A stretch of DNA of 64,000 bases from positions 1 to 64,000 of IMG/VR virus record IMGVR_UViG_3300024329_000007, one strand, 5' to 3'. Source of the stretch: a virus. The notes under the pieces are model-generated. The model was not told the DNA's origin and searched no databases. It worked only from the letters and a program-made list of their open reading frames with translations. Shown piece by piece: positions 3,262-19,762 of the stretch (its first letter is position 1; the number at the start of each line of letters is the position of its first letter). The translations under genes were made by a program, and so were the position numbers.

Positions 3262-3702
3262 CTAAAATAATTTTTTAATATTTTTTCTATCTAATATTCC
3301 AGTACGTATATCAAGCTCTTGAATAAGATCTTCTTTATAAACATTTGATAATGAGCTATAGAACTTATCTGCTTTAATATCAAAATAAACACAAAGCTCA
3401 CTAAATAAATCTATTCTACTGTATTTAGCAACCATTTCATCTACTATAAATCCGTAAACTTCATTAATATCTGCTTTCTTTAATTTAGTACATCTGCCTA
3501 AATCATCTACTTTATTAAATTTACTAAACCTAGAGCCTTCAATTAATTCATGGATCCATCTTGCTATCATTTCAAAATGAATTCGTTCTTCTTCATGTAA
3601 GCCATCGTCTAATGATGGATCTAAGTCAAATTTTATAGTGCCATTTAATTCAAAGTCTGGAGAATCAAAATTATTATTAAATATTTTATCGTTTTTTGCC
3701 AT
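3262..3702 (-). CDS. Hypothetical protein; C-terminal half resembles late-transcription coactivator gp33
   Basis: YSRIDLFSELCVYFDI...SLSNVYKEDLIQEL...GIL..K..KKLF follows the gp33 helical pattern; weak, by-eye similarity. Confidence 0.4.
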   Translation of the reverse strand: MAKNDKIFNNNFDSPDFELNGTIKFDLDPSLDDGLHEEERIHFEMIARWIHELIEGSRFSKFNKVDDLGRCTKLKKADINEVYGFIVDEMVAKYSRIDLFSELCVYFDIKADKFYSSLSNVYKEDLIQELDIRTGILDRKNIKKLF

Positions 3703-7373: not shown

Positions 7374-8582
7374 TTAAAATAATGCCGAAGCATAGATTAA
7401 GTTTGTATCTAGTGTTTGTAAGCCACATGCTACAAGAACTCTATTAAGAGGATCTATCATTGACTTTTCAAATTGAGTATCATAGTCAACTTGTGGTGCA
7501 AACTCATAAGGGTGGTCTCCAGGCATATAAGCGTAAACCTCACTAATTGGACTTTTACAATTATAGATTTTAAGCTTTTCACCATTACCGATTACTTTAT
7601 ACTTTGTCTTATATTTTGCATTAGTATTTAATAAGTAATTATAGTAACCTGCTGCTTTTACATTTGCTGGACATTTTAGACCTACTTGTAATTCAATCTG
7701 ATCATCTACAATATACTTTTCAATATTATTAGTTCTACGATTAAAACTAATATCGTCTATATTAGCCATTTGAAACTCCTTCTTAGTCTCTTTCATAAAA
7801 TTAACTAGAGTTTGCAAATCTTCAGCAGTCGGAGTACTTCCACGCTTAAAAATAATCTTTAATGCTTCAACAAGCTTTTCTCTAACAAATTTAGGAGTTG
7901 AAGATTGGATTGTATCAAAGCCGATAGTCTTAACTTTCTTAAGAGGCTTGTGTCTATCGGTCACTTCTAATTTATCATCCCATGCAAGATTCTGAATATA
8001 CTTTTTCTTTGCTAACCAGATTCCATTATAAGCTAATGATTCTAACTCAAACATTAAGTAATTGTCAGTATTTCTAGCGTCTGCATATTTTTCCATGCAC
8101 TTAGTAATATAATCTTTAAGCCTAAATGCATAAAGCTCTAATATAAAAACATCAATTGCAACTTTTTTATCTTCATCCGGCCATACAATAGATTCATATA
8201 GATCTTGAAATTGAATATAACAAGAATCTGTATCAATGTAAATTACTGCAGGCTTTTCAATCTTACCTTTAACTTTAAATCCAAAATGCTCATGTACTTT
8301 TGTATCTTTATGCCAGAACTCATTTACATATTTGTTTAATATGTCTTCTGAATAAAGAATAGCATTTTTACTCTGTTTAGTAATAGACTCTGCAATATTA
8401 ATATCAAAAAAGTGAAACCATTTATTTCCAAATGCACCGTAAATAGAGTTAAGTGTTAATTTAACAGCCTGTTCGTATGCGGTATACTTAGCCGAAAGCT
8501 GCTCATAATGTTTTATGAGCAGCTCAGCTTCAGTTTGTGAAATTTGATCTATTGGTTTATTTTCTAATTCTTTGATATCCAT
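7374..8582 (-). CDS. 43B: Family B DNA polymerase, C-terminal subunit (gp43B: fingers/palm/thumb)
   Basis: Motif B KLTLNSIYG, motif C YIDTDS, KKKY, TIQSSTP. Confidence 0.93.
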   Translation of the reverse strand: MDIKELENKPIDQISQTEAELLIKHYEQLSAKYTAYEQAVKLTLNSIYGAFGNKWFHFFDINIAESITKQSKNAILYSEDILNKYVNEFWHKDTKVHEHFGFKVKGKIEKPAVIYIDTDSCYIQFQDLYESIVWPDEDKKVAIDVFILELYAFRLKDYITKCMEKYADARNTDNYLMFELESLAYNGIWLAKKKYIQNLAWDDKLEVTDRHKPLKKVKTIGFDTIQSSTPKFVREKLVEALKIIFKRGSTPTAEDLQTLVNFMKETKKEFQMANIDDISFNRRTNNIEKYIVDDQIELQVGLKCPANVKAAGYYNYLLNTNAKYKTKYKVIGNGEKLKIYNCKSPISEVYAYMPGDHPYEFAPQVDYDTQFEKSMIDPLNRVLVACGLQTLDTNLIYASALF

Positions 8583-12476: not shown

Positions 12477-13877
12477 TTATACTTTAAATTTTTTTTTCAA
12501 TTCGTGTGCTTTTTCATAATAAGTATAAGAAGTCTTCTTATATTCCTTACGTTGTCCATATAGATCGCTTAGGATCAATTTTAGCATTGAATCTTCTTTT
12601 TTGTAGACAGCTCCGTTTTCACAAACAATAATATCTTTTTCTTTTCTTTTTTGTTTAACTTCCATTTCTGGAATCATTTCTATAAAAGAATCAGGAGAGA
12701 TATTAAACTGCCTCATAACCGATGGATATAGAGAAGCAAAGTCAAATGCGCTAACCCCAGAGTAATATCCAACAATCGGTTGTTTAACAAAAGCACCCTC
12801 ATATTTAGTATCTTTTTTAGTATCGCGATCCCATTCTACTGCAATTTTTTTATTATCAGTAGCTAGTTTTCTAGCGATTAAAGATTCTGTAACAGCAACC
12901 GGAGAGGCTGCTTTATATAAAGGCATTCTTGTAATTGTTGCTAAAGTCAATAGAACTTCCATTGATCTTAGCTTTTCATCTATATAATATACAAGACATG
13001 AATCGACTACGTTATAATAGATATATTTTACAAAGTTATTTTCATAAAGTTCTTGTAGTCCACCTGTGTATTTAATTTTAGCAACATCAAGTACTGCGCC
13101 TGAAACAAAATCAAGTGAATTAGATTCTTTAACAGCAACTGATCTATCGTACTTATCATAAAGTTGCATGTAATCTAAAATACCCATGTGTAAAGGTCGA
13201 CCATCTTTTTTATCTAAAGAACCAGTAATTGCTACTTCAGTTAAATCAATCTGAAGACGTTTACATCTATTAACTATATATTGCCAATCATAATTGATAA
13301 AATTCCAGCCGGTCATCATAGGGAATTTAGGTAAAAACTTATGCAAGAATGTATATAGCATATTATACTCATCCTTAAACTTATAATAAGAGAATTCCCA
13401 GTCTTGGTCATAATCTTTAAAGTGTGCATTTGTATCGTCTTCTATCTTTTTAATTTCAGCTGGAGACATATCGTTTAATCCGAGAACAATAGCTTTACGT
13501 TCTGGCGTGATAATAGAGAATGATAGGATTCTAGATTTAGCTTCTTCTGGCTTTGGAAAACCATCTACAATTTCTGTTTCAATATCCACAAAATAAGTAC
13601 GTGGCATATTAAACTCATAGATCTCTTCTTTATCTTTTTCCGGAAGGCTATCCATGAAATAAAGTAGACTAAACTTATTAAATGATTTAGAAATGCTACG
13701 TTTTATAGAACGGCCATCCCAGTTTTTAAAGTTTTGATCTCGCCACTTGTCACTATCTTTAGCAATAGTCCAGTTTTGGAATTTGTCTACAGGGTATCTT
13801 TTAAATGAAACCTTACCCTCTTTGTTGTAATAAGACACGATAAGCTCGCGTTCTGTTTGTTCTATATCTAATAACAT
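12477..13877 (-). CDS. 43A: Family B DNA polymerase, N-terminal subunit (gp43A: 3'-5' exonuclease and motif A)
   Basis: Exo I DIET, Exo II GWNFINYD, Exo III YNVVD, YEGAFV, motif A DFASLYPS, NISP. Confidence 0.93.
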   Translation of the reverse strand: MLLDIEQTERELIVSYYNKEGKVSFKRYPVDKFQNWTIAKDSDKWRDQNFKNWDGRSIKRSISKSFNKFSLLYFMDSLPEKDKEEIYEFNMPRTYFVDIETEIVDGFPKPEEAKSRILSFSIITPERKAIVLGLNDMSPAEIKKIEDDTNAHFKDYDQDWEFSYYKFKDEYNMLYTFLHKFLPKFPMMTGWNFINYDWQYIVNRCKRLQIDLTEVAITGSLDKKDGRPLHMGILDYMQLYDKYDRSVAVKESNSLDFVSGAVLDVAKIKYTGGLQELYENNFVKYIYYNVVDSCLVYYIDEKLRSMEVLLTLATITRMPLYKAASPVAVTESLIARKLATDNKKIAVEWDRDTKKDTKYEGAFVKQPIVGYYSGVSAFDFASLYPSVMRQFNISPDSFIEMIPEMEVKQKRKEKDIIVCENGAVYKKEDSMLKLILSDLYGQRKEYKKTSYTYYEKAHELKKKFKV

Positions 13878-14344
13878 TAATAGCCTCTTTTTTGACGTTG
13901 AACATTCTCTTCTGCTTTCGCAAAATAGTAATTGTAAGCGGTCTTTGCGTCAAGGCCTATGGACGCGGCATAATTAATAAAGAAGTGTAGAATATCTACC
14001 CATTCCATATATAGTTCTTTTTTATCATCTTCAGATAAATCAGAAACTTTCTTGTTATCAAATGTTGAGAAGTCTTTCTTCCAGTATTTCCATACTGCAT
14101 TTCCACTTCCGTCTTTAATTCCACCAAGAGCATCTGTCATTTCGTGAATTTCATCAATTACAGCATGAGTATTACAGTGCCAGAAATTCATTACATCTCG
14201 CAATGACATTTCTTCAAAGTTAAAACCATAGGTTTTTTCTTGCATGTTTTTTTGATGAGACATAATGTCTTCTAAGTGTGTTGTTGATTCTGCGTAGAAG
14301 TCTTTTACTTCAAGGTCTTTACATTCGTTGTCTATGTTCGCCAT
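13877..14344 (-). CDS. All-alpha dimeric dUTPase/dCTPase (T4 gp56/MazG-like)
   Basis: DEIHEMTD, WKYWK, EWVDILHFF, KxxENxxRQxxGY. Confidence 0.85.
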   Translation of the reverse strand: MANIDNECKDLEVKDFYAESTTHLEDIMSHQKNMQEKTYGFNFEEMSLRDVMNFWHCNTHAVIDEIHEMTDALGGIKDGSGNAVWKYWKKDFSTFDNKKVSDLSEDDKKELYMEWVDILHFFINYAASIGLDAKTAYNYYFAKAEENVQRQKRGY

Positions 14345-14394: not shown

Positions 14395-14889
14395 CTAGTC
14401 CCACCATTTTTGAATATTATGTTCTATTAAATCCCACGCCAGTTTGTGGGCTCTTTTTTGTTTTATTCTAGAATTAAGTTGCTCTGCACTCTTTTCTTCC
14501 GATATTATTAATAGCTCAGAATCCGTATAATTATGCTCATATTCTTCAACCATTTCATAATATGGATTACCATTTGCATCAGTTTCTTTAGATTCTATAA
14601 ATCTAAAATCAGAAGGGCCATATTTTTCTTTAATAATATCCGTATATTCCATGGCATAATCTTCTTCATAAACTTTTTCTAACAACTCAACTACAGTTCT
14701 AATTCTTTTAGCATCAGAAAGAGACGTAGTATGTCTGTTCTTTTTTTCAAGATAATCTGCAGTTCTTAAAAGTTGATACGAGAATAGATCAATAGCATAT
14801 CTATAATCAAAATCTGCACCATGCCATATTAATGGAAAGAATTCAAATATTCTTTTTATCTGTCTGTATTTTCTTTTTATGTACCGCAT
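14395..14889 (-). CDS. Hypothetical protein
   Basis: 164-aa ORF coupled to the PLP-enzyme gene; ends in WWD. Confidence 0.7.
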   Translation of the reverse strand: MRYIKRKYRQIKRIFEFFPLIWHGADFDYRYAIDLFSYQLLRTADYLEKKNRHTTSLSDAKRIRTVVELLEKVYEEDYAMEYTDIIKEKYGPSDFRFIESKETDANGNPYYEMVEEYEHNYTDSELLIISEEKSAEQLNSRIKQKRAHKLAWDLIEHNIQKWWD

Positions 14890-15785
14890 TACATATCCAT
14901 TGTTTTAATCTCGCCCCACTCTCTTTCCGAGTCCATATTTATTTTTGTATCTAATAATTCTGGTTTAGGGTCACCGCCCACATTCCAGAACCAAGAACCT
15001 GGACTTCCATGTTTAGCCATAAATTCCCATGCCTTAGCATCATAATTAAGAGCTGATGGAAATGGTGGTATATTATCTGGGTGTACGTTTTGAGTAAATG
15101 CCTTTGGATGAGACCATAGTTTTGCCCTACCTCTCTCTCCAGTTTTAATATTTCTAGAGACTGCAACTGCATTAAAATTAGCATCTGGCCAGGCTATTTG
15201 TAAAGATCTAGATAGAACGCCAGTAGATATTGCTGACCATACTTCTTCCGGATATCCATGTTTCTCTGCAAGATCGTATGCAACCTTGACAGCAGCTGCT
15301 GTAACAAGCTCATGACGAAGTCCAAGTGGAATAAATGTTGCATTATTTTCTTGGGCCCATTTTTTAGCATGTGCATTTAATACTGGCATTGCAGCAATTC
15401 TTTTAAATTTAAGTTCAGCACCTCGTTCAGCACAAATAGCCTGATGATCTGAAATCTCTTTTTGACTTGGGCAAAATAGAACTAATTTTTTATTATATTT
15501 TTTTGCTAGGTATCCAAGTGAAATACCAGCGAAACCATATCTTGGTTGTACATATACCAAAGTATCTGTCGGTGCTTTCTGAACTAAAATATCTCCAAAC
15601 CTACATTTAGATCCAAAGCCCATCATATCTTCCCTAACAACTTTAAAGCCATCGTGGTCTATTAGTTGTGGTGAATCAAAAGGATCTTCCCAATCACCTG
15701 CTAAATCTAACCATGCCTGTCTATTTGGCATCATTAGATTTAGATCCTGGTTCATTAAACTTTTTGTGTGGTTATTATGCGCCAT
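14889..15785 (-). CDS. Fold-type II PLP-dependent enzyme; likely decarboxylase/lyase acting on a modified DNA base
   Basis: VVRED...GSKCR (Schiff-base Lys), GFAGISL, GAEL, IPLGL, AISTGVL phosphate loop, YDAKAW, WNV; adjacent to the transferase-like gene. Confidence 0.8.
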   Translation of the reverse strand: MAHNNHTKSLMNQDLNLMMPNRQAWLDLAGDWEDPFDSPQLIDHDGFKVVREDMMGFGSKCRFGDILVQKAPTDTLVYVQPRYGFAGISLGYLAKKYNKKLVLFCPSQKEISDHQAICAERGAELKFKRIAAMPVLNAHAKKWAQENNATFIPLGLRHELVTAAAVKVAYDLAEKHGYPEEVWSAISTGVLSRSLQIAWPDANFNAVAVSRNIKTGERGRAKLWSHPKAFTQNVHPDNIPPFPSALNYDAKAWEFMAKHGSPGSWFWNVGGDPKPELLDTKINMDSEREWGEIKTMDM

Positions 15786-16992
15786 AAAATTCTTTTACTT
15801 TTTGTTTATATTCTTCTGGTTTAATTCCAGCCGCATCTAAAACCTTAAGGTCAGATGGAAATGAAGTCATACCATTAAATGTTTCTAATAGACCAAGGTC
15901 TAACATAGCCCTTTGTCTTCCTGATGGATGGTCTTTAATTGTAGATGAGTTCCATAAAGTGTCCATGTTAATATGTGCATAATCAGCACCTGGCCTTAGA
16001 TAGTTTTCAATCCATCTAATAAAGTCACAGGCTACATCCTCAGCATTATAAGGTAGACTACCAGTATCTTCATAGATCTTAGTCATAACTGCATCCAAGA
16101 ACTCTTCAGATTTCTTACCTTTCTTTTCTACAGGATCTGCAAGATAACCAATACATTCTACTGCATTAGTACCATAATAGAACATTGATTCTCTATTCAT
16201 AAATTCTGGGTACCAATCACATACATCTGCAATAACTGCAGCATACTGGAATCTATAAGCTCTTAATCCATTTGCAGCATTCCAATCAAACATCCATTGG
16301 CCAAGCTCTCTTAAATCCTTCTTACCACCTTCTCTTAAAAAGTTTGCCATATCTCTTGCCATTCTCGGTGCAAACTCACATAAGAAATAATCGCCACCTT
16401 TTTTATAAACATATTCTGGTTCTGTAAAGTTATCCATTCCTACAAATAAATCCTCATTCCCGGAGGGTTTTGGTGGCTTAGGAAATGCTGGAAACTGATA
16501 GCCAACTGAAGTATAAAAAGAAGTTGGATGGTGTTTCACCTTTTCACACATATCTTCAATAGTGTCACAATCATATAAATCAAATAAGATTGTGTTATGA
16601 TATCCGGATGGTTTAGTTGCATAATTAATTGCAGAGCCACAAACTCTATGGAGAATAAAAATATAGAGCCATTCTTCTAATCCAAAAACTTCTTGCCTTC
16701 CAGTCCAATTCTTTGCAACCTCTTCTCTTTGGGGGTAAATTTTACCAGCTTGCATGTGTTTCCAATAAGGATGTTCTGGGGCCCAACCATAAAAACAATC
16801 ATTTATGATCTGACTAAAACCTGCATACTTGCGCTCGACAACATCATATAATTGAATCTGTTCCATAAGAGGATCTTGCATGCCACTCTCATCATGTGGA
16901 GTCATACCAAGGTTTGAAAGCTCTTGTTGCTTTTTAGCAAGAGCAAAATACCTTAAAAACTCATCGTAATATTTTGTTGTTGTTATCTGCAT
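15775..16992 (-). CDS. Amino acid:DNA transferase-like protein (aGPT-Pplase superfamily, DNA-glycosylase-like helical fold)
   Basis: Motif order YDVVER, LHR, FQYAAVIAD, YGTNAVECI, AEDVACDFIRW parallels aGPT-Pplase1 (FTNVxR, FxAYQxxxD, GPGA, xNxxCEFxK); PLP-enzyme neighbour matches known thymidine-hypermodification loci. Confidence 0.6.
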   Translation of the reverse strand: MQITTTKYYDEFLRYFALAKKQQELSNLGMTPHDESGMQDPLMEQIQLYDVVERKYAGFSQIINDCFYGWAPEHPYWKHMQAGKIYPQREEVAKNWTGRQEVFGLEEWLYIFILHRVCGSAINYATKPSGYHNTILFDLYDCDTIEDMCEKVKHHPTSFYTSVGYQFPAFPKPPKPSGNEDLFVGMDNFTEPEYVYKKGGDYFLCEFAPRMARDMANFLREGGKKDLRELGQWMFDWNAANGLRAYRFQYAAVIADVCDWYPEFMNRESMFYYGTNAVECIGYLADPVEKKGKKSEEFLDAVMTKIYEDTGSLPYNAEDVACDFIRWIENYLRPGADYAHINMDTLWNSSTIKDHPSGRQRAMLDLGLLETFNGMTSFPSDLKVLDAAGIKPEEYKQKVKEFYGA

Positions 16993-17144
16993 TAATCTTT
17001 AATTAATTCCCATGTTAATGCATCTCTATTTCTCTGATACTGATCCATAGACCAATTAAGATCTGCTGTTGCTATCTCTAAAATATAGCTTGCATCTGGT
17101 GCATTGTGTGGTGTAATTCTAATTCTGTAGTCTATTGCTTTCAT
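16992..17144 (-). CDS. Small hypothetical protein, 50 aa (not in the ORF track)
   Basis: MKAIDYRIRITPHNAPDASYILEIATADLNWSMDQYQRNRDALTWELIKD*; TAATG stop/start overlap with the downstream gene. Confidence 0.7.
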   Translation of the reverse strand: MKAIDYRIRITPHNAPDASYILEIATADLNWSMDQYQRNRDALTWELIKD

Positions 17145-17146
17145 AT

Positions 17147-18217
17147 TTAAAATAGCGCTGTTTGAATAGTTGCGACTTCTAATTTTTTATTAGGTTCATT
17201 GTTAATTAAATCCCATCTATAGAATTCTCTAGCCAAGTGTACTGATTTAGGTTTTTCCATAACATCAAAACTTAATTCGCCTAGTGCATTTTTATATGCA
17301 TCTGAATGTTGCCATGTAGACCAACCATTACGATCACACATTGAAACTATCATCTCATTCATAAGATTTACCAGATTAGTTCTCTCTTGCCAAGAGCCAG
17401 CAAATGGTGTTCCTTTATAATAACCAGTCTTTGGTAGCTTGCGAGATTCATTCTCAATAGGCAATGCTTGTATAACTTCTATAGTTTTTATACCTGAATC
17501 AATAAGCGCTTGCTCATACTGAGCCATCATCTTAGTTAGGGCCGCACTGGGATCTGACTGTCGCATTAAATGATGTCTTATGTCGATATTACCAAGGTAG
17601 ATCCTAAGATCAGTGGTCCATGGGTAAACATACTCTGCGAGTCCACGTTTTAGGGTCCCGAATAAAGTTAAACCATCATTACGATTTACCATATACCCAG
17701 GAGTATACATACTAAAAGAATGACTATCACCAAAACAGAGTTTATCTGTTTTTTCAATATGATCTACTCTATGAATAAAATCACTACAAATTTTAGTAGC
17801 CATTTCTATTTTATCTTCTAGAGTTTTAAATAGATCAGATCCGGTCTTAAGTCTTTTAGTTATAAGCTCACCAATATCTGGCATATCGTGGTGCATACTG
17901 TACATTCTTACTCCACAAAATAATCTATTTAGTTGATGGTATAAATCATCATTTGCACCTCCAAAAATATTAAAGGTGCCTTTAAATTCCATACCATGAT
18001 CTAATATGATTCTGTCATATTTAGTCCAGTCTTCACTAACGCTAGTAATTACTGTCACATCTTTATATCCAGCAGTTCTTAATTGATTTGCAAGCATAAA
18101 AGGCCAAGCACTTTTATGCGAACTTAACTTATCTGAAAACTTACCAACTAAAATTGCAATTCCAATCTTAATATCAGTGTGTGGTTCTAATTCTGTGAAG
18201 TACTTAAATTCCTGCAT
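17147..18217 (-). CDS. Two-domain protein: N-terminal domain resembling the T4 beta-glucosyltransferase N-domain fused to an SGNH/GDSL hydrolase-acyltransferase domain (probable start MQEF at 18217)
   Basis: SGNH blocks FGDSH, G, GNID, SVH; N-terminal KIGIAILVG...YDRIIL...FNIFGG...MYSMHHDMP. Confidence 0.6.
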   Translation of the reverse strand: MQEFKYFTELEPHTDIKIGIAILVGKFSDKLSSHKSAWPFMLANQLRTAGYKDVTVITSVSEDWTKYDRIILDHGMEFKGTFNIFGGANDDLYHQLNRLFCGVRMYSMHHDMPDIGELITKRLKTGSDLFKTLEDKIEMATKICSDFIHRVDHIEKTDKLCFGDSHSFSMYTPGYMVNRNDGLTLFGTLKRGLAEYVYPWTTDLRIYLGNIDIRHHLMRQSDPSAALTKMMAQYEQALIDSGIKTIEVIQALPIENESRKLPKTGYYKGTPFAGSWQERTNLVNLMNEMIVSMCDRNGWSTWQHSDAYKNALGELSFDVMEKPKSVHLAREFYRWDLINNEPNKKLEVATIQTALF

Positions 18218-18521
18218 CTGCGTCGGTTGTATTGATTGGTTTTTCAGTTTCGCCATACCCATATTTTTTAATATAGTTATCTAGGCCGCCAATATATGCA
18301 ACAGCATCAAGAAGGTTATCTTCTTTATAATTATAAGAATGTCTACTTAATTTAAGTGCGACTAACGCAGCATACATGTCAGCTCCGGTAAATTCTTTGC
18401 CAGTCATACCTGAGCAAACCATTGCAGCTCGACGCATACCTTCTTCAAAAGGGCCATACATGCGTTCTTTCTCTTCTGATCTATGATTAATAATCTTGTC
18501 AGCTTCGTTTAATATATTCAT
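18204..18521 (-). CDS. DUF6378-like all-alpha nucleotide pyrophosphohydrolase (probable start MNIL at 18521)
   Basis: ILNEA..II...R...YG.F, LKLSR, EDNLLDAVAY; the longer start in the ORF track would run through a promoter and a terminator. Confidence 0.7.
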   Translation of the reverse strand: MNILNEADKIINHRSEEKERMYGPFEEGMRRAAMVCSGMTGKEFTGADMYAALVALKLSRHSYNYKEDNLLDAVAYIGGLDNYIKKYGYGETEKPINTTDADAGI

Positions 18522-18537
18522 GTGATTTACTTTAGTG

Positions 18538-18564
18538 TTATATGTGTAATTGCTAGTTTGTTTA
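18538..18564 (-). promoter_or_regulatory. TAAAC-N17-TATAA promoter heading the base-modification cluster
   Basis: TAAACAAACTAGCAATTACACATATAAC, directly after a terminator. Confidence 0.5.
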
Positions 18565-18577
18565 GATTTAAACCAAT

Positions 18578-18603
18578 AAAAAAGGCCAGTCTTTCGACTG
18601 GCC
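18578..18603 (-). terminator. Intrinsic terminator
   Basis: GGCCAGTC-GAAA-GACTGGCC followed by T6. Confidence 0.9.
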
Positions 18604-18628
18604 AATTTAGGAAGTAGAGTTTCAGATC

Positions 18629-19762
18629 TTAATTCAATAAGGCTCCGACTTGTGCTCTAGGATCTAGTTGGTTTGTTTTAAATGGGTTTGGAACTTGATT
18701 TCCAAGGTTCCAAGATTTACCCAACATATTACCAGACTTAATCATTAGTTCAGTAGAGTCTTTGTCAGTCATTGCAAACGCAAGTTGTTCTGGGGCATGT
18801 GTTGCCACGTGAGTCATTCCGTTTACTAGAGACCAAATTGATTGGTTTGTATGTGCATTTTTTAATTCATCTGTTGTGAATTCTGTAGGATTTTGATTGT
18901 TCTTAATGTAAGCTGAACGGTTTTCGCTAAGTGGAATCCAATTATCAGCAGCATCTCCAACGTGACTTTTAATAGTGCTATGTGCTCTTTGCATTTCAAA
19001 TAGAGATGCTGGAGTGTTCATTGCATTATTTACTGTGTTTGCAAAATCATTAGGAACAAATCCAGTCTTACGCAAATCAGACATGTGTTGAAAAAACTTT
19101 TCCATAGAATCTTTACTTAAATTATTAAGAGAGTAAGATTCTTTTGCCATTGGAGTTGAAAGTCCATTTGAACACCATAGTCGATTAATATAAGGCATAA
19201 CTTGAATTCCGTTGCTTGGGCTATTTGTTAGCGTTAATCCAGATTTAAAAACCTCATCAGCAACTCCGAATTCAGCATTAGGGTTATATGCATTAATAGT
19301 TACTAAACCTTTATTAGCATCAACGCCCCAGTTTGTAACTTCAAATCCATGTTGATCTATAATTTGATCTGCAAGATTTATAAACCTTGAATGACTAATA
19401 AGCCCAGTTGCTGTTTTTGAAAAACCTAATACTTTTTTAGTAGTAGGTGATACAATTAATGTAATCTCGTTTAATTGAGATGCCATTGCGTTTTTCATTT
19501 GATTAACAAATGATGCTTTAGCTTCAGGAGAGAAAAGATTATCAAACTTTTTAGCAAATGTTTGACTCATTCCAATTAGCTTAATTAGACTCTTAAATGC
19601 ATCTTTAGTAATCTCTAGGCGTTTACCTTTGATTTCAATAGTTGTGTCATTAACAAGAGTAATTTCTCTAACTGCAATAGTTTTACGAATTGCTTGTGAG
19701 TTTAAAGTTTCCGCTTTACGGCTTTCAATTACTGAATTGGATAGTGTTGTTACTGTTGGCAT
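18629..19762 (-). CDS. DUF932/DUF945-like phage protein
   Basis: GLTLTNS...G...RLWCSNG motif and C-terminal W.LVN..T. Confidence 0.65.
   Translation of the reverse strand: MPTVTTLSNSVIESRKAETLNSQAIRKTIAVREITLVNDTTIEIKGKRLEITKDAFKSLIKLIGMSQTFAKKFDNLFSPEAKASFVNQMKNAMASQLNEITLIVSPTTKKVLGFSKTATGLISHSRFINLADQIIDQHGFEVTNWGVDANKGLVTINAYNPNAEFGVADEVFKSGLTLTNSPSNGIQVMPYINRLWCSNGLSTPMAKESYSLNNLSKDSMEKFFQHMSDLRKTGFVPNDFANTVNNAMNTPASLFEMQRAHSTIKSHVGDAADNWIPLSENRSAYIKNNQNPTEFTTDELKNAHTNQSIWSLVNGMTHVATHAPEQLAFAMTDKDSTELMIKSGNMLGKSWNLGNQVPNPFKTNQLDPRAQVGALLN

Follow-up and report, generated by a model that had tools for sequence, protein, structure and literature searches.

A 64,000-nucleotide stretch of viral DNA, positions 1 to 64,000 of the IMG/VR record IMGVR_UViG_3300024329_000007 (hereafter the window), carries on its minus strand, at 17147..18217, a gene for a hybrid protein, named F here, in which an N-terminal domain homologous to that of the phage T4 beta-glucosyltransferase (BGT) is joined to a C-terminal domain of the SGNH fold. 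From this fold, the conserved Ser/His pair and the gene context, we infer that F either transfers an acyl group to a DNA base or removes one from it. The role that we put first, while giving it slightly less than an even chance, is that F acylates the hydroxymethyl group of 5-hydroxymethylcytosine (5hmC) and in this way activates it for substitution by one of two partner proteins, T or H. On this view T4-like phages would have a pathway of 5hmC hypermodification, widespread and so far uncharacterised, with F as a DNA-acting enzyme in it. It is a chimeric enzyme new to phage DNA hypermodification, which is itself of a known kind, and there is a realistic chance that its chemistry is new as well.

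The N-terminal domain is homologous to the N-domain of T4 BGT

The N-domain of F comprises residues 1-152 (17762..18217, minus strand). A profile built from 122 diverse family members (alignment A1, which is also the basis of the AlphaFold model and of the conservation counts) was compared with a profile of 33 BGT homologs (alignment A3), and hhalign placed F 16-125 on BGT 1-118 with a probability of 97.2% and an E value of 3.5e-11; against T4 BGT alone the E value was 2.7e-5. The AlphaFold model of residues 1-152 alone (pLDDT 96.6) retrieved T4 BGT (1c3j_A) as the best of 48,161 chains in a VIA-align search, with a Z score of 6.5 and a root-mean-square deviation of 3.1 Å over 104 residues. 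The structural register, model residues 16-152 on BGT 1-136, agrees with the register found by hhalign. The margin of the BGT match is small, given that generic Rossmann-like matches reach Z 5-5.9; T4 alpha-glucosyltransferase ranks ninth in the same search, and Foldseek of the N-domain model against PDB returned nothing below 1e-3, with CheY-like receivers at the top. Because of this narrow Z margin and the empty Foldseek search, the structural match alone is insufficient, and it is the sequence profile test that decides the question of homology. On the evidence of the profiles, shared descent of the two N-domains can be regarded as confirmed. An earlier note on this DNA had pointed out the resemblance to the N-domain of T4 BGT, and the domain does prove to be BGT-like, both in its profile and in its closest structural match.

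Conserved residues of the domain include S33-H34 (18116-18121, minus strand) and the NIFGG loop, N83 to G87 (17957-17971, minus strand). In the profile alignment, the invariant BGT residues N70, G73 and G74 coincide with the near-invariant N83, G86 and G87 of F. The catalytic pair of BGT, T99-D100, which is invariant in the 33 BGT homologs, falls in a gap. Its ungapped counterpart in F of the window, D111, is Asp in only 25 of the 122 members, Pro being the commonest residue there, and the equivalence of Asp100 and D111 suggested in the earlier note does not hold. The profile match stops at BGT residue 118, ahead of the donor domain of BGT, and a search with PF09198 found nothing in five genomes that carry F.

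The start of F is ambiguous. The 356-residue form read from the ATG at 18217 begins MQEFKYF and ends at the stop codon at 17147-17149, and an alternative in-frame ATG at 18262, 45 nucleotides upstream, would give 371 residues. Conservation begins only at residue 16, no obvious ribosome-binding site is present at either start, and the homologs are 353 to 376 amino acids long, so neither start can be preferred.

The C-terminal domain has an SGNH fold with a conserved Ser/His pair

The C-domain of F comprises residues 153-356 (17150..17761, minus strand). The AlphaFold model of the full-length protein has two domains (pLDDT 96.7), and residues ~153-343 form an SGNH fold: VIA-align matches reach Z 13.8, 50 SGNH entries lie above Z 9.5, and Foldseek, whose matches are to GDSL/SGNH enzymes, gives a probability of 1.00 to GDSL lipases. 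Among the structural neighbours are PatB (7tjb), OatA (6vjp and 5ufy), sialate O-acetylesterase and the OSK domain of Oskar (5a4a, Z 11.8). The replacement of the sugar-donor domain of BGT by an SGNH domain, also proposed in the earlier note, is thus borne out, and the motifs quoted there are found on the minus strand at 17720-17731 (GDSH, with Ser165), 17570-17593 (GNIDIRHH) and 17237-17245 (SVH, with His327).

The SGNH blocks of F follow one another in the canonical sequence: one each behind strands 1, 2 and 3, and the last in the C-terminal loop. Block I, G163-D164-S165-H166, comes immediately after strand 159-163; block II is represented by G182/T184 following the second strand and block III by G209-N/S210-I211-D212 following the third; the C-terminal loop, S325-V-H327, holds the His. 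G163 is present in 120, S165 in 121 and H327 in 120 of the 122 members, and D164, H166, D212, R259, R279 and E321 (17255-17257, minus strand) are each present in all 122. An invariant Arg/His set, consisting of R214, H215, H216, R219, R259 and R279, is also found in the domain.

F is constant, whereas its partners T and H vary

Clustering of the F family at 90% identity gives 967 clusters, and at 50% identity there are 404 representatives (E < 0.001). Nearly all are metagenomic proteins without a name, from contigs that reach 293 kb. F has no match in Pfam, its PHROG matches (13881 and 17781) are both of unknown function, and neither phmmer with F nor hmmsearch with the family profile gave a meaningful match among PDB sequences. 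A literature search, which included SGNH/GDSL proteins in connection with DNA hypermodification or BGT, found no publication describing the family. Among isolated phages, full-length F occurs in phages 44RR, 31 and 25 of Aeromonas, in their close Aeromonas relatives and in two records of Stenotrophomonas phage IME13. A 339-residue protein of Tenacibaculum phage PTm1, gp050 (L092 5566-6585), has only the SGNH half in common with F (PHROG 13881 match, residues 150-329), and its gene is placed between ribonucleotide reductase genes.

Two scans yielded 143 related phage loci with flanks, in which open reading frames (ORFs) were called and then clustered; the partner counts refer to the 39 distinct F genes that had 4.5 kb or more of flank on each side, and to partners within 5 kb. 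Either T or H is found near F in every one of these 39 cases, T in 28 and H in 11. T is in the window a helical protein of 405 amino acids, a candidate group transferase encoded at 15775..16992 (minus strand), and its gene adjoins that of F in 60 of 82 loci. H, of ~360-490 amino acids, matches the Pfam family HMUDK_hel, the helical domain of 5-hydroxymethyldeoxyuridine (5-hmdU) DNA kinases, above the cut-off (E 3.4e-7). Each partner has its own company. Of the 28 cases with T, 25 include a pyridoxal phosphate (PLP)-dependent enzyme, which is found in none of the 11 with H; in the window this is a PALP-like enzyme of fold type II at 14889..15785 (minus strand; phrog_7093, E 4e-40; Pfam PALP, E 2.3e-4, under the curated cut-off). 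Inositol-phosphate synthase (Ino1) accompanies H in 11 of 11 cases and T never, and the H loci usually contain a small HAD-type phosphatase and often an FkbM methyltransferase. As F is constant and T and H are variable, F would perform the common step on the base, and T or H would choose the group that is attached. The linkage of F to the T and PLP genes that was seen in the window extends to dozens of other phage contigs.

The association goes as far as gene fusion. F and T form a single ORF in L079, a complete phage of 225 kb, and in six of the 50%-identity representatives (P0127, P0145, P0151, P0162, P0190 and P0223). F and H are fused in Aeromonas phage 44RR2.8t, as the 795-residue ORF233c, and in relatives of this phage; the H part is 42% identical to free-standing H. 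A triple fusion, FkbM+H+F, is present in P0135, and a search for loci related to it found none.

The gene context also bears on a second function proposed in the earlier note, N-acylation by F of the amine that the PLP enzyme produces. F, T and the PLP enzyme do share one operon in the window, and in PaMx11 an acetyltransferase acts after the amino-acid transfer step (PMC8989533). However, F is equally conserved in the 11 H/Ino1 clusters, none of which contains a PLP gene, and in Aeromonas phages that have none either. Capping of this amine is therefore a disfavoured role, and we consider it very improbable.

For T itself, no match was found in PDB, Pfam, PHROGs or, by tblastn, in isolated phages, and a protein search returned only close unannotated relatives. 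In the ESM Atlas, the neighbour clusters of T contain PF18723 (HMUDK_hel) in 11-36% of their members and PF18724 in 12%, which gives a lead, and no more than that, towards a transferase resembling HMUDK_hel or the amino-acid:DNA transferases (AADT). T was also considered as a paralog of F and rejected, since the link in the single-linkage cluster was a fused ORF and direct comparison of the two proteins shows no similarity.

The probable target base is 5-hydroxymethylcytosine

Divergent homologs of thymidylate synthase (TS) adjoin F in the H-type loci and in many T-type loci, and others are encoded elsewhere in the genomes of relatives, including one whose F is 69% identical to that of the window. 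In all of these divergent homologs the residue three places ahead of the catalytic Cys is acidic, the string MRSND is present, and Asp stands where T4 gp42 has D179 (E. coli N177); in canonical ThyA copies from these genomes the corresponding residues are Leu, Asp and Asn. It has previously been reported that N177D marks dCMP as the substrate, that an acidic residue at L143 goes with water addition, and that D169N is characteristic of 5-hydroxy-dCMP synthases (PMC13326640). Because the TS homologs keep D169 together with the gp42-type signature, they are assigned as gp42-type 5-hydroxymethyl-dCMP synthases; 5-hydroxy-dCMP synthases were considered as well and rejected on account of the Asp retained at the diagnostic position.

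The gene order is in line with this assignment. A dCMP deaminase gene is usually next after the synthase, and in several relatives the order is TS-like gene, dCMP deaminase, module, F, UvsX, gp41. In T4 the corresponding order is 42, b-gt, segA, uvsX, 40, 41, and F occupies the place of b-gt. Phages 44RR, 31 and 25 of Aeromonas are known to have genes 42 and 56 and no glucosyltransferase, the fate of their hydroxymethyl-dCMP being unknown (Petrov et al. 2010, PMC2993671). Judged from the signature of the synthases, the modified base is most likely 5hmC and not 5-hydroxymethyluracil, which the earlier note had also considered as the target.

The C-terminal tail of F resembles that of the phage polymerase

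The C-terminal peptide of the T4 and RB69 polymerases binds the gp45 sliding clamp. In the window, F ends in IQTALF (ALF at 17150-17158, minus strand) and the C-terminal subunit of the family-B DNA polymerase (7374..8582, minus strand; Pfam DNA_pol_B) ends in YASALF. Close relatives combine Q[ST]ALF in F with A[ST]ALF in the polymerase, and in a distant lineage (L115) F ends in ASLEDFFV and the polymerase in ASLEAFFV, so that two tail types co-vary between the two proteins. Tails ending in LF occur in 20 of the 122 sampled 50%-identity representatives, and among the collected loci 83 F tails have this ending. The tail of F is thus like that of its own phage's polymerase (ALF; SLE[DA]FFV), and F probably rides the sliding clamp, which fits an enzyme acting on newly made DNA. 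A 146-residue protein of the window (3262-3702, minus strand) ends in KKLF, with the same final LF as F and the polymerase C-subunit.

A proposed role in place of the DNA kinase, and the alternatives

Those 5-hmdU DNA kinases that have been characterised belong to the P-loop type (PMC8989533). A Walker A motif is absent from all 147 F sequences and all 104 T sequences that were inspected. H consists of the helical domain alone, preceded by only ~90 residues, and a GxxxxGKS string is present in 7 of 36 H sequences, all in a single subclade in which Pro follows. When PF18723 was searched in two complete genomes with terminal repeats, it found only H in one (G001, 293 kb) and nothing in the other (G002, 225 kb, with the F+T fusion); PF18723 and PF00303 found nothing on the record to which the window belongs, which says little, as that record is only 27% complete. 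A small protein encoded beside H (c13) was considered as the missing kinase on the strength of its PHROG name, polynucleotide kinase, and was rejected because it has the motifs of a HAD phosphatase (DIDGV, TGRS, EDD) and no P-loop. The F+H fusion has the layout of the 5-hmdU DNA kinase (5-HMUDK), a catalytic domain combined with HMUDK_hel, except that F stands where the kinase has its P-loop domain. Considering the constant pairing with T or H, the lack of a detectable P-loop kinase and this shared layout, O-acylation in place of the kinase step is the function that best fits the context.

A mechanism can be proposed on these grounds, in which we infer the DNA substrate, the acyl transfer, its donor, the order of the steps and the final adduct. 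The BGT-derived N-domain would dock F on 5hmC in DNA, and behind the replication fork the ALF tail would keep it on the sliding clamp. The SGNH domain, through Ser165 and His327, would take up an acyl group as an acyl-enzyme from a donor in the cytosol, the simplest being acetyl-CoA, and pass it to the 5-CH2OH, so that the hydroxyl would become a carboxylate leaving group. Acylation would in this way take the role that the P-loop 5-hmdU DNA kinase has in thymidine hypermodification. Substitution of the acyloxy group by a nucleophile would next fall to T or H, of which T would bring an amino-acid-derived group that is later processed by the PLP enzyme, and H an inositol-derived group. Taken as a whole, the scheme in which a clamp-riding, BGT-derived SGNH acyltransferase replaces an ATP-dependent base kinase in T4-like phages of many environments, with 5-acyloxymethylcytosine as the intermediate and with T and H as interchangeable enzymes installing amino-acid- or inositol-derived groups, is offered tentatively, with a chance well below even.

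Several observations weigh against activation by acylation. First, block III of the SGNH domain is non-canonical, with Ile at the usual place of the oxyanion Asn and Asn or Ser one residue earlier, and there is no Asp three residues before the block V His (H327), that position being Lys or variable; the invariant E321 may substitute for it. Second, the invariant Arg/His residues (R214, H215, H216, R219, R259 and R279) could mean that the substrate carries phosphate and is not a simple acyl donor, and neither an acyl donor nor a CoA-binding element was identified for F. Third, SGNH enzymes are mostly hydrolases, and sequence cannot separate a transferase from an esterase. Outside F, the kinship of T to H or to the amino-acid:DNA transferases is drawn only from language-model neighbours, and T tried as a homolog of H gave hhalign E values of 0.07-0.56, which are not significant. 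An unrecognised kinase may be encoded elsewhere in these genomes, the record of the window being ~27% complete. Finally, neither T nor H was detected in phages of the Aeromonas phage 25 type, which carry F; there F adjoins a UDP-galactopyranose mutase gene and a possible glycosyltransferase gene, an arrangement that fits a tailoring role better.

Such a role would make F an O-acyltransferase that, much as PatB and OatA O-acetylate glycans, acetylates or otherwise acylates either free 5hmC, as an end product, or a hydroxyl of the group already attached (inositol, sugar or a serine-type adduct), with no activation involved. The presence of SGNH carbohydrate transferases and esterases among the structural neighbours (PatB, OatA and sialate O-acetylesterase) is consistent with it, as is the recurrence near F of sugar and cyclitol genes: UDP-galactopyranose mutase (in phage 25 and in loci L038, L046 and L051), a PHROG glycosyltransferase, Ino1, an epimerase and FkbM. 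However, F is invariant across chemically different modules and tailoring enzymes are usually variable, the fact that it is repeatedly fused to T or H indicates a core step coupled to theirs, and no hydroxyl for acylation need be left by the T/PLP module. We consider tailoring unlikely, but with an appreciable chance of being correct.

If F were instead a hydrolase that acts on DNA, it would be an esterase or deacylase that removes an acyl or aminoacyl group, serving as protection or carrier, from an intermediate on the base, or that edits mis-modified bases. The earlier note had given deacylation as one of its two readings, and both the conserved Ser/His centre and the fact that most characterised SGNH proteins are hydrolases agree with it. 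On the other hand, the conserved core shows no acylating enzyme by which the ester could be made, and activation of the hydroxymethyl group stays unexplained where no kinase is present. We rate hydrolysis as improbable.

The Arg/His cluster and the non-canonical block III would also suit an SGNH-like domain that has taken up non-acyl chemistry, in which the cluster might bind a phosphorylated or nucleotide-linked donor for phospho-, glycosyl- or inositol-phosphate transfer, or one that serves only as a clamp-tethered base-flipping subunit presenting 5hmC to T or H. F stands at the b-gt position with the nucleotide-sugar domain replaced, and the OSK domain of Oskar demonstrates that an inert, nucleic-acid-binding SGNH fold exists. 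Nevertheless, a near-absolute Gly-Asp-Ser-His and a C-terminal His in canonical order are what a working Ser/His centre would be expected to have, and we know of no SGNH enzyme with nucleotide-sugar or phosphate donors. A non-acyl function of this sort seems quite improbable to us.

Comparison with known systems

With BGT (PF09198, 1c3j), F shares the homologous N-domain, including the N-x-F-G-G loop, the likely substrate, 5hmC in duplex DNA, and the position of the gene beside dCMP hydroxymethylase and uvsX/41 in T4-like genomes. It differs in that the UDP-glucose C-domain of BGT (R191, R195, R269 and E272) is replaced by the SGNH domain, and in that F has no conserved Asp100, lies below detection by Pfam PF09198 and has a clamp-type tail. 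F therefore stands outside the BGT family in the functional sense, though the N-domain is common by descent; the scaffold of a DNA glucosyltransferase has been re-used with another catalytic domain.

The likeness to SGNH/GDSL enzymes such as PAF acetylhydrolase (1bwp), sialate O-acetylesterase (7pzg), PatB and OatA (6vjp) is one of fold (Z 10-14) and of the canonical order of Gly-Asp-Ser, the block II Gly, G-N-x-D and the C-terminal His. Unlike these enzymes, F has no match to them at the sequence level, has His after the Ser (GDSH), Ile at the place of the oxyanion Asn, the invariant E321 rather than the Asp of DxxH, and the additional invariant Arg/His cluster; its SGNH domain is fused to the domain of a DNA enzyme and encoded in a DNA-modification operon.

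The closest parallel in pathway logic, operon composition and multi-domain fusions is thymidine hypermodification as found in M6, ViI and PaMx11 (5-HMUDK, aGPT-Pplase2/AADT and a PLP decarboxylase). The elements common to both would be a synthase of the hydroxymethylpyrimidine, an enzyme that activates it, a helical transferase and a PLP enzyme, and H matches HMUDK_hel. In the system described here, by contrast, the predicted base is 5hmC and not 5hmU, F stands in the place of a P-loop kinase, of which none was found, T belongs to no detectable family, and a second module has inositol-phosphate synthase and a HAD phosphatase instead of the PLP enzyme.

The question raised by Petrov et al. (2010) about the fate of hydroxymethyl-dCMP in 44RR, 31 and 25 is now directly testable, as these phages carry F. 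If the proposed function is correct, it would represent the first non-glycosyl hypermodifications of 5hmC, an activation of a DNA base that is independent of a kinase, and new cytosine adducts, with relevance for phage resistance to restriction and other nucleases and for enzymatic tools of 5hmC labelling.

Variation of the modules among relatives

The H modules of a complete 293-kb phage (L072, 8451-16986) and of L097, L142 and L125 encode a homolog of myo-inositol-1-phosphate synthase and a 130-residue HAD phosphatase, often with the addition of an FkbM methyltransferase, a protein resembling C5-cytosine methylases and an NAD epimerase. This content suggests an inositol-derived, possibly O-methylated, group on cytosine. 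In 44RR2.8t (L001 5411-9391), the gene of the F+H fusion, ORF233c, comes immediately after a sodium:solute symporter gene, ORF234c, which hints that the phage imports a compound that it attaches to its DNA.

Among T-type loci, L038, L046 and L051 have a gene like the PHROG 'beta-1,4-glycosyltransferase' and a UDP-galactopyranose mutase gene between the PLP and MazG genes, and some T-type loci add a gene of the LOG/'lysine decarboxylase' family (c34); these extra genes point to further variants of the adduct. The closest relatives of the PLP enzyme in isolated phages (33-35% identity) are domains within 'DNA modification methylases' of ~810 residues, in Erythrobacter phage vB_EliS_R6L (gp1, L157) and Microcystis phage Mae-JY30, which supports a DNA-linked role of this PLP family.

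In phage 25 (L091 2764-6035), F is preceded by the UDP-galactopyranose mutase and by a 358-residue protein of phrog_14998 (MKILVTGTNNY...), the halves of which align weakly and in register with the N-domain of F and BGT and with the C-domain of BGT (E 0.005-0.009). This protein may be a galactofuranosyl transferase for 5hmC.

Genes around F in the window

The genes around F are all co-directional and densely packed on the minus strand. Going downstream, the order is DUF6378, F, a 50-residue ORF, T, the PLP enzyme, a 164-residue ORF, a MazG-like gene, the N-subunit of the polymerase, ribonucleotide reductase and the C-subunit of the polymerase, and then UvsX, a gp41-type helicase and gp46/47 homologs; gp32 and UvsW homologs lie on the upstream side. 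This set of homologs identifies the window as part of a distant T4-like phage. The record from which it was taken is a 79.9-kb IMG/VR fragment with a completeness estimate of 27%.

Directly upstream of F, the DUF6378 protein (18204..18605, minus strand; Pfam DUF6378, E 5.9e-10) would be similar to nucleotide pyrophosphohydrolases, and its gene adjoins that of F in 74 of 82 loci. Further upstream, a 377-residue protein (18629-19762, minus strand; phrog_1362, of unknown function) occurs only in the two closest relatives and does not belong to the conserved module.

Between F and T, the 50-residue ORF (MKAIDYRIRITPHN...; 16992..17144, minus strand) is kept at the protein level, in an unchanged position, in 53 locus entries, some of them from the same contigs, with 50-96% identity by tblastn, and is likely to be a genuine small component of the module. 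Its place is taken in some relatives by a thioredoxin-like ORF of ~84-111 residues.

The MazG/dUTPase_2-like NTP pyrophosphohydrolase (13877..14344, minus strand; phrog_173, E 5.9e-13; weak Pfam dUTPase_2) has a conserved placement downstream of the PLP gene and is a candidate for an analog of the gp56-type dCTPase. The family-B DNA polymerase is divided between two genes, 12477-13877 and 7374-8582 (minus strand), with both ribonucleotide reductase subunits and a 247-residue ORF between the halves; more distant relatives (L062-L068 and L143) have a single polymerase of ~815-850 residues.

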